Assembly: GCA_964016885.1 (NCBI GenBank)
Contig: OZ024747.1
Span: 16,430,001 to 16,494,000 of the forward strand
DNA: 64,000 nt
Reading direction: 5' to 3'
Source: Eledone cirrhosa
Taxonomy: Eukaryota
Of this stretch, positions 4,818 to 44,097 are shown piece after piece. The number at the start of each line of letters is the position of its first letter. The stretch's first letter is position 1. Made by a program: the position numbers and the translations under genes. The notes beneath the pieces were generated by a model. The model did no database searches, was not told where the DNA came from, and saw only the letters and a program-made list of their open reading frames with translations.

Positions 4818-4995
4818 ATCAGGATGGCATCAGTTTTAAATTAATAAAGCAATACTCAACAGAGTACTACATACTTATGGTAGTAGAATATGATCATATT
4901 GTAAAGAATCTGGAACCGACAGCTGAGCTCTTGCCTTTTCAACATCTCGTTCCATTCCAGAGTGAGCTGTCCTCGGATCCAGACACTTCATAATA
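4818..4995 (-). mobile_element. Short PLE terminal fragment between (TA)n tracts: degenerate hammerhead (4909-4983) plus downstream bulged hairpin (4862-4894)
   Basis: Minus strand reads TCTGGAT-CCGAGGA-...-GAAA-AGGCAAGAGCTCAGCTG-TC-GGTTCCAGA, then CATATTCTACTACCATAAGTATGTAGTACT. Similar to the piece at 10403-10485. Confidence 0.6.
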
Positions 4996-5270
4996 TACAT
5001 ATATATATATATATATATATATATATATATATATATATATATATATATATATATATATATATATATACAGTATTTACGTATCGAGAAAGAGAAAAAAGGG
5101 GAGGATAGGTGATACATATAGTTATTTGCCAAGTAGCGTATGCCAAAGGTGCTCGATACTAGTGCCGGCAGTATTAAATATTCGAAGTGTTAATATTTAG
5201 AGGGCTAGAGAGTTAGCAGAGCGTAAGCACGTGGGAAAGTAAAAAATCGGAGAATATACCGTTAAAACAG

Positions 5271-5310
5271 CACCTACGTACGTTTCGCCCAGTTGGGGTT
5301 CTCAAGGGTA
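5271..5310 (-). ncRNA. Minimal type I hammerhead variant (CUUGAGA core)
   Basis: TACC-CTTGAGA-ACCCC-AACT-GGGC-GAAA-CGTACG-TA-GGTG; palindromic stem III; stem I TACC/GGTG. Confidence 0.6.
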
Positions 5311-5606
5311 TAAATAATGAAAAGTGTTCCTTATATTGCTCGGAAAGAGTTTTTGGGGTTACATCCACATCAAGGTTCATTGTTCGCAAAAATAGCTTGT
5401 GTTGATTTTGCAGCAGGTCAAGGGAGGTAACTCCGGCCGATGTTAGGGCAGTCTTTCCCGGACAATTTTTTTATTTTTTTTTATTTTTGCCGCCTCTGTT
5501 TGTCTGAGGCTGGGTTGGTGTGCAAGGATTGTTTCTAGGGTGTTATTTTGCAGCGCCTGCCCGCCGGGGTGTTAAGACTTGTTGCAGGGAGATCCGGTGT
5601 ACGGTT

Positions 5607-6128
5607 TCACTCCTCATCTTTAACCCATCTGAAGAAGGATATGTTTAAGCGATGTGTACAACTTATCGCTGTTTCAGCTCTGCTGTTGATGAGCTCGTGG
5701 GGTGCAGTTATGATGTGGTAGAGCTCCATGAGGCAAAGATCGCATTTCCTCTTGAAGTTGTACGGTGCAGCCCTACCGACAATCTCCCAGTGCGTGGAGA
5801 AGCTGATGTTTAAGTCCTTTAGTGATGTGATGTAGTCCGCGAGCGAAGTGGAGTGCCTTAGTTTTCTATTTGTGAAAGAGTGGAGATGTGTTCGAAACCT
5901 AATTTTGAACGGGCCGGAGGTAGCCCCTATATAATGTTTAACGCTATTGTGGCTAGTAATAGTGAATATATATATAACCCTATCAGTCAAGCAGTATCCT
6001 TTAAGGGGTCAGCGTCCTCTGTCGCTGCAGTTGCAATTTCTGTCGCGGTTCCGTCTATTTCCCACGGTAAGGCTATCATTGTTGCTGCCTACGTTGTTAC
6101 CTACGCTATTGCAGCTGTCGTTAGCACC
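5607..6128 (-). pseudogene. PLE GIY-YIG endonuclease fragment
   Basis: Reads CNCSDRGR*PLKGYCLTDRVIY...HYIGATSGPFKIRFRTHLHSF...STSLADYI..LK...WEI...CDLCLMELYHI...INSRAE..SCTH; collinear with the ORF at 51822-53027. One in-frame TGA at 6011-6009. Confidence 0.88.
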
Positions 6129-39935: not shown

Positions 39936-41137
39936 AAATATATATATATATATATATATATATATATATATATATATATATATATATAGAGAGAGAGAGA
40001 GAGAGAGAGAGAGAGAGAGAGAGGGAGAGGGGGGAGATAGAGAGATAGTTGTATATATATATATATAATTGTTGTTGGATGCTTAAAGCGTCCGTATGCG
40101 GTAGCCCGTATACGCACTCGATGCCCTCGTAGAGCAGAGTATGATATCACTTGTTTCTGTGATACATATATGTTGTTGTGGTTATGGACTAATGCTACAT
40201 ACACCTGGTTGATATATTTTTCATCGCGTCTCCGTTGTATAAATTACTTTGTTTTCTCTGGTGGATAAATGTATTCACTTCTCGCATCATAAAGTGTTTG
40301 GGACTGCCTCATATTATTCGACTGGTACCTGCCTTAATGCATATGAACACTGCAAAACGTAATGCACATATCTATGGGCTCTAGAAATCTTAACTGTCTA
40401 GGTGAGAAATTCATTTCCGTGTGATATTCATCTGTATTATTATTATATACTCTGGTTGCAAAACATTTAGTCGATATATTTTGCGAATATCTTATACACT
40501 CAATAAATATACCATTGCAGCTGAAAGCTCTGAATCACAAGATATTGTTTCTCCGTCCTTATTAATGACACTGTCACGCACAATTTATCTTGAGCCTCTT
40601 TAAAACAATTTAAACTTATAGTATTTCCAAATAGATAAAGATGTATTAAATGGAAAGAGTCATTCACTTCCATTAGTTTAATTGCCCTTCTTATAATAGT
40701 TCTATTCCATTTTCTATTCATGTAATACATTGAACATATATTTTATAGCTAAGTTACGTGGCGATGCATTAACCCGATAATATATCACGGTTCTAACCAT
40801 TATAGCATCTCAACTAAAGAAAATAGTATTTAGAAGAAACGATAATGAGCAATAAACTAAAACATGTGATTTTATTATAGTTTCATATTTGTCCATTACT
40901 TCAACAATTTGTATGCATATTTAATATTTGATATTCTAGTTATTAGATATATCTATTGCAACAAGTAGATCCACACAATTTTCTAGAACGCTTTCGAAAT
41001 TAAACCTGCTGAAGCCACTTCTGTGTATACGCTCCAAAGCTTTTAAATTAAAATGATTATATTTATCTATTCCCTTACAAATGTTTATAACAAGGTCTAC
41101 GCTATTTTTCGAAGGCCAATTTAATATTTTTTTCCAC

Positions 41138-41872
41138 TTTTGGCACAAGGCCAGCAATTATACAGTACATTACTGGTACTTTATTTTATCGATCCCGTAA
41201 GGATGAAATGCAAAGTTAACCTCGGCGGGATTTGAATTCAAACCGTAAAGGGACGTAGCCCTCTGTCGGAAAGCATGGTGCCAGACCCTCTACCAATACT
41301 GCTAATCCACCGCCAAGTTAATAATTGTTTCTACTGTTGGCACAAGGCCAACAATTATGCCAGTGTATTACTGGTACTTTATTTTATCGACCCTGTAAGG
41401 ATAAAAGGCAAAGTTAACCCCGGCGGGATTTGAACTCAGATCATAAAGGGACCAAGTTAATAATTGTTTCTACTTTAGGCACAAGGCCAGCAACTACCCA
41501 GTGCCTCACTGGTACTTTATTTTATCGACTCCGTAAGGATGAAAGGCAAAGTCAACCTCGGCGGGATTTGAACTCAGATCGTAAAGGGACGTAACTATGC
41601 TAGAAAGCATGGCGTCCGACCCTCTACCGATACTACCAATCCACCGAGTTAATAATGATTTCTGATCTAGTCACAAGGCCTATCATTTTTGGGGAAGGTG
41701 ACAATTGATTAAACCACCTCCAGTACATTAGTGGTGCTTTATTCTCTCGACCCCGTAAGAATGAAAGGCAAAGCTAACCACGTTGGGATTTAAACTCAGA
41801 ACGTAAAGGCCCGTAATATGCCTCGAAGTATAGTGTCCGACGCTCTACCGATTCTGCCATTCCACGTCCCTT
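41138..41872 (-). mobile_element. Head-to-tail cluster of four tRNA-derived SINEs
   Basis: Copies at about 41138-41312, 41318-41452 (truncated), 41457-41645 and 41650-41872 (diverged, longer tail). Confidence 0.9.
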
Positions 41873-43903
41873 AATAATGAAAAAAATTAAATTATATTTT
41901 TCCAAATTATTTTATCTAAAGAATTATGTATTCAAGGAATTGAAATTCAAAGGTTGCGAGTTTTATTAGGAATATGGAACGAAGGAGTTCAAAATTATTT
42001 CTACTGTTTCGCCTCGTTTAAATGATACTACGCCATGTGATCATCTTCAGTGAGCTTTAAACTACTTCGATATTAACATATTACTTTATATAGAACATTA
42101 TTTTCCGATCCTGCGATGGTTTCTTCTAATATAAGATATTCGATACACATTCTTATCCTAATTATTAATCTTTTCCTAATCTAATTTAATCCTTTTTACG
42201 GCATCTCATAAACTTCCATTGTTTAGCTTTTATTCCAATCTATTCCTTCTCACACAATTTCCATTTAACTGATATTTTATGACTTCTATAACGTGTATTT
42301 GATTTAATAATTCCATTGTCCTAACAATCACTAATATTTTCCCAATAACACATTGAGATTTACAGAGAAACATTATCGATTTGACCGAAACTTTTAATAG
42401 CTAAAGCTATTTTTAGAGATATACATTTCATTTCATTTCTTCGAACATATTAAGAACTATAAAATGTATTTGCAGTGTAGATGTGGGTCTTAATGGTTAG
42501 GGGGTTCGACGTATGATCATATGTTCATCAGTTCAATTCCTGGCTGTGCATATGTTCTTGAAATAGACATGCTATCTAATGCTGCATCCATGAGTTAGAT
42601 AATCAACTGATAAAATTGTACCAAACATTCTCCCACTGTTTCTCGCTGACGACTGCACTAATGTCATATGAAGCCGTGAAATGCTCAGATACATGCACCT
42701 TAATTTCTTGGACTGGATATACGTATCGCTGCATGTAAGTTAAGCAGTGTAATTTTATGGCATATTATATTTTAACTAATCACTCCACTATGGATGTATA
42801 CAAAAGTATAATGCATTGCGACACAAGTAGCAGCATTGTTTATCCTGGTTTCAATACCAGCAAATATGACGTTCGTCCACATTTCCAGACTGGTAAATAA
42901 ATACCTATCGAGTAATGGGGTCAATTTTTCAGGTATTCTTCTCTCATAAGCCTGTTCTTTTTTGTCTTAGGTAATACATAGACATATATATGCACGCGTG
43001 AATGCCTGAGTATGTAAACCTCGGTTCATGTATTGAAAAGATATAAATGACTCCAACATATTATTCTAGATGACTTAAAAGCGGCGACGCGATACGACTG
43101 CAAAGTTGTGTAGAACCAGTAAACGAATAAGAGCGTACAGAATATATAGTTCGTAGCATTAGAATATTCTAAAAATACACTTTAATATAAACACGAACGC
43201 ACACATATATATATATATATATATATATATATATATATGTGTGTGTGTGTGTGTGTAAATACGTTGTTTTCATTCATATATACAAACATTCATTTTATTC
43301 TTATTGCCAATATTTTGATTTACCAGTCGTTAACCAGGATATTTTTAGATGCAATTATTAGAATATCTTCTTACTACGAACTATATATCGATTCAACCAT
43401 AGCGTCAAAATCATCTTAAATTTTCTTACGAAATTGTACTAAGTATCATTCGTACTTTCAAACGAAATAATAATATTGTTCATAATTCATACTTATTTTC
43501 ATATAAATGAGATTCGTGTATAAATAACGGGAAGAAATAAATGATTCTATTAGAAAAAATATTGTTCTTGTTTTCTTTATGGATATTTCTCATAAAATGT
43601 ACTTATTTAAAACATTTGAAGTAAATTGAATACGCACACTTCTACCAATACAAATATATTGAGTTTTTAGTTTTATAGTTCATTACATCTAAATTTAATA
43701 TTCATTGTTAAACAAAGATAATAGTTGATTTTCCAGAATAACATGAAGTTAGTTTCTTTAAATATTCATATATAAAAGTGTAACAAGTTATACAGAAGAG
43801 GCGTATTTATTTTTAAGATCATGTCTATAAATGTATGGAGTACTTCATTTAAACGTGGGCTTTTCAGAATTCCCCTGGAAATCCATTATATATCTATATA
43901 TTT

Positions 43904-44097
43904 GTCTGATGGTAGCTAAGATGCTCCATAGGCGGTATGCCGGTTGAGCACTCTATACTCTTACAGAGCAGAGTATGATAGAATATATATATATATATAT
44001 TTATTTATTTAATATAGAAATGGCTTCTACAGGACTAGAACTGTTACATTCGGGAGAAATCATCAGGAAGCCCTGATTGAACCCGAGATAAACTTAT
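43904..44097 (-). mobile_element. PLE terminal fragment: hammerhead (44022-44072) plus tail with bulged hairpin (43947-43980)
   Basis: GGCTTC-CTGATGA-TTTC-TCCC-GAAT-GTAA-CAG..CTG-TA-GAAGCC (GAAA changed to GTAA); the tail matches 21049-21126. Confidence 0.75.

Follow-up and report, generated by a model that had tools for sequence, protein, structure and literature searches.

A bulged hairpin carried twice in the leader of Hydra-clade Penelope-like elements and its probable role in placing insertion ends

A stretch of 64,000 nucleotides (nt) from the genome of Eledone cirrhosa (GenBank assembly GCA_964016885.1, contig OZ024747.1, positions 16,430,001 to 16,494,000 of the forward strand; hereafter the window) had been described in a sequence-only reading as containing a recurrent bulged hairpin in the company of hammerhead ribozymes (HHRs). 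We found that this hairpin, with the consensus RCUC-[stem]-UH-GAGY-RCU, is tied to Penelope-like elements (PLEs) of the Hydra clade and not to the hammerhead as such. It typically occurs twice in the leader of these elements, which reads HHR, TA site A, copy 1, TA site B, copy 2 and then the ATG, and insertions end a few nucleotides before either copy 1 or copy 2. Judging from the genomic sequences, it seems likely that each copy of the hairpin binds the reverse transcriptase (RT) of the element and sets a start point for copying.

Host elements and the two hairpins of the leader

[quoted passage not shown] The frame contains RVRWK, ADKT (DKG changed to DKT), CNCTYPDNC (CxCX5C), CKLC (CxxC) and CRH (CxH), and the corresponding RWK, DKT, CxCX5C, CxxC and CxH characterize the Hydra clade (Craig et al. 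2021, PMC8557442). In one family of young insertions, below called the young family, both the hammerhead in the pseudo-long terminal repeat (pLTR) and insertion into (TA)n were present. Units measured 3,599 nt and ~3,540 nt owing to long 3′ untranslated regions (UTRs), the typical length of less than 3 kb for Hydra elements not being defining (PMC8557442). A Pfam search returned no family for two full proteins at E<=0.01 and none for ten window frames, and the domain names used here come from motifs read by eye. With families named after the window position of a hairpin copy, a parent with a Hydra-like ORF was identified for each of the 12964, 10403 and 21049/43947 families, and a decayed EN of this type precedes the 5148 copy. 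The host families had been thought to be unrelated; where a parent ORF was checked, all were Hydra-clade PLEs.

The second copy of the hairpin had escaped the sequence-only reading, and the window cannot show it because the insertions there end just before it. Using a profile of 40 proteins, we collected 78 metagenome loci, 48 of which had a leader of at least 130 nt and fell into 36 non-redundant clusters. Two copies were present in 26/36 clusters, one in 7/36 and none in 3/36, several of the one-copy and no-copy leaders being 5′-truncated, while the controls gave 2 in antisense, 0 in ORF sense and 1 in ORF antisense sequence. The two copies were spaced 52-83 nt apart (25 metagenome leaders), the predicted HHR cut fell ~36-55 nt before copy 1 (metagenome leaders with both scored) and copy 2 ended 12-49 nt before the predicted ATG (31 leaders). 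Two copies before the ATG were also found in the published consensus of Hydra-1_Ajap (sea cucumber), and one copy at the 3′ ends of those of Hydra-2_Ajap (sea cucumber) and Hydra-2_Amil (coral), all from the PMC8557442 supplement. Six 9-mers from the 3′ half of the motif occurred in that supplement at 6 places, of which 4 were in Hydra, 1 in Naiad and 1 in Chlamys elements, the latter two being half-matches lacking an evident 5′ partner, in a text where line breaks can hide matches.

Both copies were furthermore retained in arrays that lack a match to the Hydra ORF, with units of 299 nt or 1.32 kb. The former is a retrozyme-like array (locus L308, G000:C2:356028500-356033500; L numbers denote genomic loci) of units derived by deletion in the 10403 family, which retains the hammerhead, both hairpins and the ATG, has (TA)n at its start and end, and has a long end, i.e. 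one that reaches to copy 2. The latter is an abundant tandem family (L309, L313, L314) with both hairpins, no Hydra protein match and no hammerhead in the scan. In a unit of 582 nt, copy 2 was read by eye as UCUC..GAGA with a long loop. Such non-coding derivatives fit a signal for mobility more than one for translation, but the 299-nt array arose by a recent deletion. This bears on the view that the hairpin pair is mainly an expression signal, either for cap-independent translation after hammerhead cleavage or as an internal promoter, with the ends being due to something nearby. The short distance from copy 2 to the ATG would suit such a function, in viruses, HHRs of the 5′ UTR stimulate cap-independent translation (PMC13725137), and Penelope has an internal promoter (PMC8557442). 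It would, however, leave unexplained why the same offset is found at both ends and why one short end is matched with one long end, as described below, and the arrays lacking the ORF keep both copies, though some of them may be recent derivatives. We hence consider this explanation very unlikely.

Insertion ends

Junctions were placed at the end of identity and their offsets were counted from the hairpin copies, with ends before copy 1 (site A) being called short and the tail-bearing ends before copy 2 long. In the young family, where TAT plus three more bases precede both copies, 20 inverted insertions picked since both arms reach the EN had the long end at -3 from copy 2 in 20/20 cases, and the short end at -3 from copy 1 in 18, at -1 in one and at -7 in one. 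Another 20 insertions of this family, picked by EN match alone, comprised 10 inverted, 9 non-inverted and 1 unresolved case; all 10 inverted ones had one short and one long end (two long ends scoring -13, with nearby substitutions, and one long arm being seen by alignment only), and all 9 non-inverted ones ended short. Overall, 30/30 inverted insertions of the young family thus had one end of each kind. None of the further TAT sites of this leader, which number at least four and include a TATAT, ever served as an end. The two arms of an insertion differed by 0.3 nt per 610, compared to 4.5 between insertions (20 insertions tested), and both arms of an insertion thus share a haplotype.

Similar positions were seen in other families, with the short end at -5 in 17/17 and the long end at -3 in 20/26 cases for the 10403 family, the short end at -4 to -8 and the long end at -6 in 21/28 cases for the 12964 family, and the long end at -4 (5 cases) or -10 (3 cases) for the 21049 family. 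In metagenome contigs of other origin, eight ends lay at 0 to -3, five of them at -3. When short ends of four older families had an inverted partner, this was always long (17, 15, 11 and 6 cases). That the inverted arm stops just before the motif, as had been noted for the window, was confirmed there. At L152:440-480, L161, L175 and L291-L293, (TA)n runs or 5′ starts were seen directly before a hairpin copy, which suggests that elements insert into one another's end sites.

Ends of this kind could also result if the motif acted in DNA, with the GIY-YIG EN or a second-strand step recognizing either a hairpin in the single-stranded cDNA or the GAGYRCTC duplex palindrome, and then cutting or stopping at the TA upstream. 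The EN of D. virilis Penelope needed the tail for recognition, as related in PMC11167929, and the tail has been attributed to EN cleavage (PMC8557442). Ends of the GAGCACTC type form a palindrome, there are also 5′ starts placed shortly upstream of a copy, copying of one arm from the other would agree with the arms being identical, and the strand evidence for an RNA fold, given below, is weak. Copy 2 is, however, outside of the long-ended insertion and must consequently act on the template before copying, 9/9 non-inverted insertions end at site A while having no partner arm, so that the site-A end is not only a fold-back product, and compensatory changes in the stem would not be expected of a site in duplex DNA. 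Taken together, we find an action in DNA unlikely.

A third explanation would be that the motif directs cleavage of the RNA 3-7 nt upstream, as a tiny ribozyme or through a protein-guided cut, with copying from the new RNA 3′ ends. The same fixed ends would result, and the invariant UH bulge and the RCU tail might serve in catalysis or docking. Yet the conserved core is ~15 nt and has no match to any Rfam family, long-ended copies require an uncut copy 1, the ends follow a TA and not one bond, and Poseidon initiates internally on uncut RNA (PMC11167929), for which reasons we regard such cleavage as quite improbable.

Reality and pairing of the hairpin

The motif is more frequent than in shuffled sequence. 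A strict descriptor with an inner part of <=30 nt gave 6 matches in the window compared to a mean of 0.205 and a maximum of 2 in 200 block-wise dinucleotide shuffles, and with an inner part of <=70 nt there were 7 matches versus 0.585 in shuffles. In the whole genome (3.0 Gb, AT-rich), two family-type patterns had 5,134 matches versus 10 and 14,282 versus 22 for reversed-pattern controls, counts that mirror transposable element copy number. An evenly spaced sample of 390 kb of the genome was less clean than the other controls, with 18 matches compared to 8 in the reversed sequence, and most of the true matches had (TA)n 40-70 nt further on. A relaxed scan of the genome loci produced 143 matches in 30 clusters, some of them being chance singletons. 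The motif lay outside existing Rfam families, as had been surmised: the window had 0 matches at the gathering score, and among 69 matches with E<=1 in 10 loci none lay over any motif copy. The literature searched, which lacked most subscription papers and the Repbase and Dfam notes, held no account of the motif or of twin copies fixing both ends, and the accessible text of 10.64898/2026.07.22.740005 mentions no such motif.

The consensus of the metagenome copies was GCUC-Y..R-UH-GAGC-ACU. Among 59 such copies, inner pair 1 was paired in 58 (46.3 when shuffled), inner pair 2 in 40 (24.3) and inner pair 3 in 39 (23.3), while inner pair 4 had no significant excess over shuffles. The first inner pair was U-A 13 times and C-G 12 times in copy 1 and C-G in 29/31 cases in copy 2, and in copy 1 it flipped between C-G and U-A 9-10 times on a quick tree of 34 proteins with pair labels set by hand, at least 7 of the flips being forced by starred branches. 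In 25 long-loop copies 98% of cells paired, with a covariation score of 0.42 versus 0.13. These patterns indicate that pairing of the inner stem is under selection. As for the outer pair, which had been said to covary, most metagenome copies have G-C there and a few have U-A, and A-U is found in many families of this genome, so that all three pairs do occur, but A.C and U.C mismatches are found as well. The RCU tail is conserved (ACT in 52/59 metagenome copies), being predicted as mostly unpaired. The 3′ arm in metagenome leaders often reads GAGCACTC; this is a palindrome, and its ACUC might be a competitor of the 5′ GCUC. A second conserved hairpin within the tail, suspected early on, turned out to be family-specific.

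A covariance model was built from the 25 long-loop copies only, with MAFFT misaligning the short-loop copies. It was weak on the window families of ACTC/GAGT type (10403, E 0.003; 43947, E 0.2; 12964, E 4.4; 21049 only as an offset match), also matched the reverse strand of 43947 and 21049, and a search of the window at E<=10 did not recover the 40114, 5148, 17193, 38147 and 50671 copies.

These data also speak to the idea that the motif has no function, and reflects shared descent combined with chance TA microhomology. All copies are in related elements and the region upstream is A/T-rich, as such an origin would have it. Proteins with only ~35-45% identity nevertheless keep the motif twice while the rest of their leaders does not align, the compensatory switches are repeated and better TA matches are ignored. 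The twin-copy counts, the pairing excess and the switches largely refute this idea already, and we see hardly any chance of it being correct.

A proposed mechanism and the points against it

The sequence-only reading proposed a cis RNA signal for RT binding or priming, and our evidence favors this indirectly, in that the element ends keep a fixed register upstream of the motif, while the evidence for RNA over DNA is weak. Its further suggestion, that the signal acts on the 3′ product of ribozyme cleavage, is not needed, since no result obtained here requires such a product; HHR cleavage was dispensable for insertion in one PLE studied in vitro (PMC11167929). In the mechanism that we propose, the motif would fold in the sense RNA, and the RT-EN protein, probably as a dimer, would bind both copies on one transcript, each hairpin holding an RT subunit and offering the TA upstream of it to a cut (TA)n end. 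The EN would cut both strands of a (TA)n target, whereupon one cut end would anneal to the TA immediately 5′ of copy 1 to prime the short arm, this being the usual start. Priming by the other cut end may take place at the TA immediately 5′ of copy 2, by which the tail would be copied. The two cDNAs would then be joined head to head. As the ends sit before either copy 1 or copy 2, the PLE 'tail' would therefore be the stretch between two hairpin-set start sites.

Several observations weigh against this mechanism, the whole of which is read from genomic ends. The CUC/GAG core never varies in the 25 long-loop copies and is practically invariant overall, and therefore shows no covariation (one of these counts used an alignment fitted to the model, with near-copies included). 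G.U pairs had been held to favor the sense strand, but this evidence was weak, with G.U outnumbering A.C by 13 to 6 at inner pairs 1-3 and being outnumbered by 3 to 9 at pair 4 in the 59 metagenome copies, and predicted pairing was moderately better on the sense strand (19 and 16/25 versus 14 and 10/25). In the PMC8557442 supplement, as far as its accessible part goes, the Hydra-1_Obim and Hydra-1_Amil consensi have no clear motif and Hydra-1_Crog only a variant, and for the most abundant family in this genome only a decayed copy 2 was found (L321, from pattern searches for a parent). With regards to the ends, offsets range from -1 to -10 across families and are blurred by TA microhomology, and there were stray ends, with one at -83 (L166) and six at -19 from copy 1 in the 1.32-kb L313 family. 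Solo long ends were common in the four older families (9, 6, 17 and 6), at loci partly chosen by the motif. One true head-to-head insertion with two long ends was found in the 12964 family (L315), compared to 15 with one short and one long end; most other apparent pairs of long ends were read-through copies or separate elements. Finally, the haplotypes shared between arms could also stem from gene conversion, assembly polishing or the copying of one arm from the other.

Going beyond start points set by hairpins, we also entertain, more tentatively and with no great confidence, what could be called programmed twin priming. Here a dimeric, telomerase-related RT would dock on the two identical RNA hairpins of one transcript and both cDNAs would be started at hairpin-measured sites, one per end of a double-strand cut. 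The hairpin would then be a portable 20-nt start signal by which any upstream RNA might be inserted into (TA)n, with other PLE clades perhaps having twin signals of their own.

Features of the window

The fold had been listed at nine places, and eight of these were confirmed in fold and sequence, whereas 4862-4894(-) has no GAGY and folds otherwise. An inverted insertion of the young family is found at 50600..54052, as located by blastn of the parent leader, with its long end at 50600 and its short end at 54052 and with (TA)n adjoining each. It contains the 3′ 401 codons of the Hydra ORF (51822..53027, minus strand), comprising the RT thumb region, the CxCX5C linker and the GIY-YIG EN and being 99% identical to the 785-amino-acid frame elsewhere in the genome, a type I hammerhead with a long stem II (50755..50871, minus strand, descriptor scan) with its predicted cut 48 nt before copy 1, and copy 1 itself (50671..50711, minus strand; TCTC-CGG..CCG-TC-GAGC), which falls outside the descriptor of the sequence-only reading. 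This is the weaker candidate that had been placed near 50660. Another, at 11523..11568 on the plus strand, is probably a decayed copy with the bulge TG, a relative in L072 having an intact bulge, but at 12050 and 20546 no motif was seen.

Copy 1 of the 12964 family (12967..12991, minus strand) lies in a fold-back insertion at ~12908-15550, and in the parent leader L248 it is followed 90 nt later by copy 2 and then the Hydra ORF. That of the 10403 family (10406..10429, minus strand) is in a long-ended stub, 10352-10494, with copy 2 being found 78 nt later in the parent L311, followed by a full Hydra ORF, and that of the 21049 family (21055..21079, plus strand) is in a fold-back stub, 20777-21129, with copy 2 being found 85 nt later in the parent L274, followed by a decayed Hydra ORF. 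The 21049 family also accounts for a tail-only stub at 43895-43987, which contains copy 1 at 43950..43974 (minus strand), and copy 1 at 40116..40140 (minus strand) is in a tail-only stub of a sister family. The start of tail-only stubs (43895-43987, 40068-40153, L078, L088 and L093) is 2-14 nt ahead of copy 1 and their end precedes copy 2, as though copying that began at the second site had halted at the first.

Both a U3-A8-type hammerhead (5272-5309, by eye) and a decayed Hydra EN region (5607-6140) lie upstream of a copy 1 with a long inserted loop (5151..5222, minus strand). At 17193..17226 on the plus strand, copy 1 comes right after a ~95-nt palindrome, has relatives in cluster 8 and escaped the strict scan owing to one mismatch at the inner stem's base, while 38147..38172 on the plus strand is copy 1 of a further family (cluster 6). 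Two additional copies had not been noted before, one at 17428..17447 (minus strand; ACTC-CAA..TTG-TT-GAGT), which was the best match of the covariance model, this having been built from non-window sequences, and a decayed one with a weak inner stem at 49902..49936 (minus strand).

The linkage of six copies to a nearby hammerhead, as had been claimed, held in part. A complete HHR lies ~50 nt upstream of the 12964 copy by scan (13035..13103, minus strand, with the predicted cut 50 nt before the 12991 copy), and upstream of the 5148 copy by eye, with its U3-A8-type core. For the 10403 and 21049 copies only one half, a clear 3′ half, was found, a (TA)n run stands between the 43947 copy and the HHR near it, which resembles another element's end, and none was found within 330 nt of 40114, 17193, 38147 and 4862. 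The hammerheads at 5272-5309(-) and in the L311 leader display covariation of the core to U3-A8, a variant that has been described for Schistosoma PLEs (PMC4209133). Hammerhead-like folds at 44020-44075(-) and 20905-20950(+) have U rather than A after GAA, and at L248:743-814 a sub-threshold match to the Rfam HH9 hammerhead (37.7 bits) lies well upstream of the leader hammerhead of that family.

The window also holds a decayed transposon with ~100-nt inverted ends at 10544-11467, which we take to be a mariner-like DNA transposon, and a dispersed SINE-like family at 10139-10275, 28848-29150, 32939-33126, 41122-41878 and 62354-62545, with a 138-nt tandem duplication of this repeat at 41313-41590.

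Significance

The one-sided tail and the inverted copies are unexplained hallmarks of PLEs, a class of retroelements that is sister to telomerase, and the rule proposed here would give a sequence-level account of both ends in one PLE clade. The motif can serve as a marker for non-autonomous Hydra derivatives, of which there are tens of thousands in this genome, and is possibly a minimal signal for RT-based gene insertion. It also names the exact nucleotides for mutation in an assay that exists for another PLE.

Comparison with known systems

In twin priming of L1 elements, two target ends prime on one RNA, which gives an inversion, with the second site being variable and upstream. In the Hydra elements, on the other hand, the second site is fixed and downstream, and both arms copy the same region; in the literature searched, L1 twin priming was tied to Penelope by co-mention only. 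The elements studied here share with the Hydra clade as described (PMC8557442) the RWK, DKT, CxCX5C, CxxC and CxH marks, the hammerhead, (TA)n targets, tandem and inverted copies, and a one-sided tail. They differ in that the accessible part of that article describes no conserved leader hairpin, and in the tail, which is 30-40 bp there versus 52-115 nt here, where it spans copy 1.

The mechanism proposed above agrees with Poseidon PAc (Frangieh et al. 2024, PMC11167929), the RT of which, a predicted dimer, initiates internally at two sites that delimit the tail, requires RNA lying 3′ of them and extends both strands. PAc is from another clade, however, its sites are inside the ORF in an AC-rich stem-loop, and no twin motif is reported in the accessible part of the article. 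The stem-loops of LINE 3′ tails (eel UnaL2 and zebrafish; PMC1636434, PMC4176376) are likewise small hairpins with an internal loop or bulge, and in stringent LINEs the hairpin is recognized by the protein of the element and shared with non-autonomous partners (PMC1636434, PMC4176376). [quoted passage not shown] In epsilon of hepatitis B virus (PMC10534774), an RT fixes the start of synthesis by binding a bulged stem-loop, but synthesis is there protein-primed from a 6-nt bulge while priming in Hydra elements would be by target DNA outside of the hairpin, and the two are likened by fold and not by sequence. Hairpins recognized by RTs (UnaL2, epsilon), the Hydra clade and the PLE tail were thus already known, and what appears to be new, going by the literature searched, is the motif and its twin copies, by which both ends of these elements would be set.

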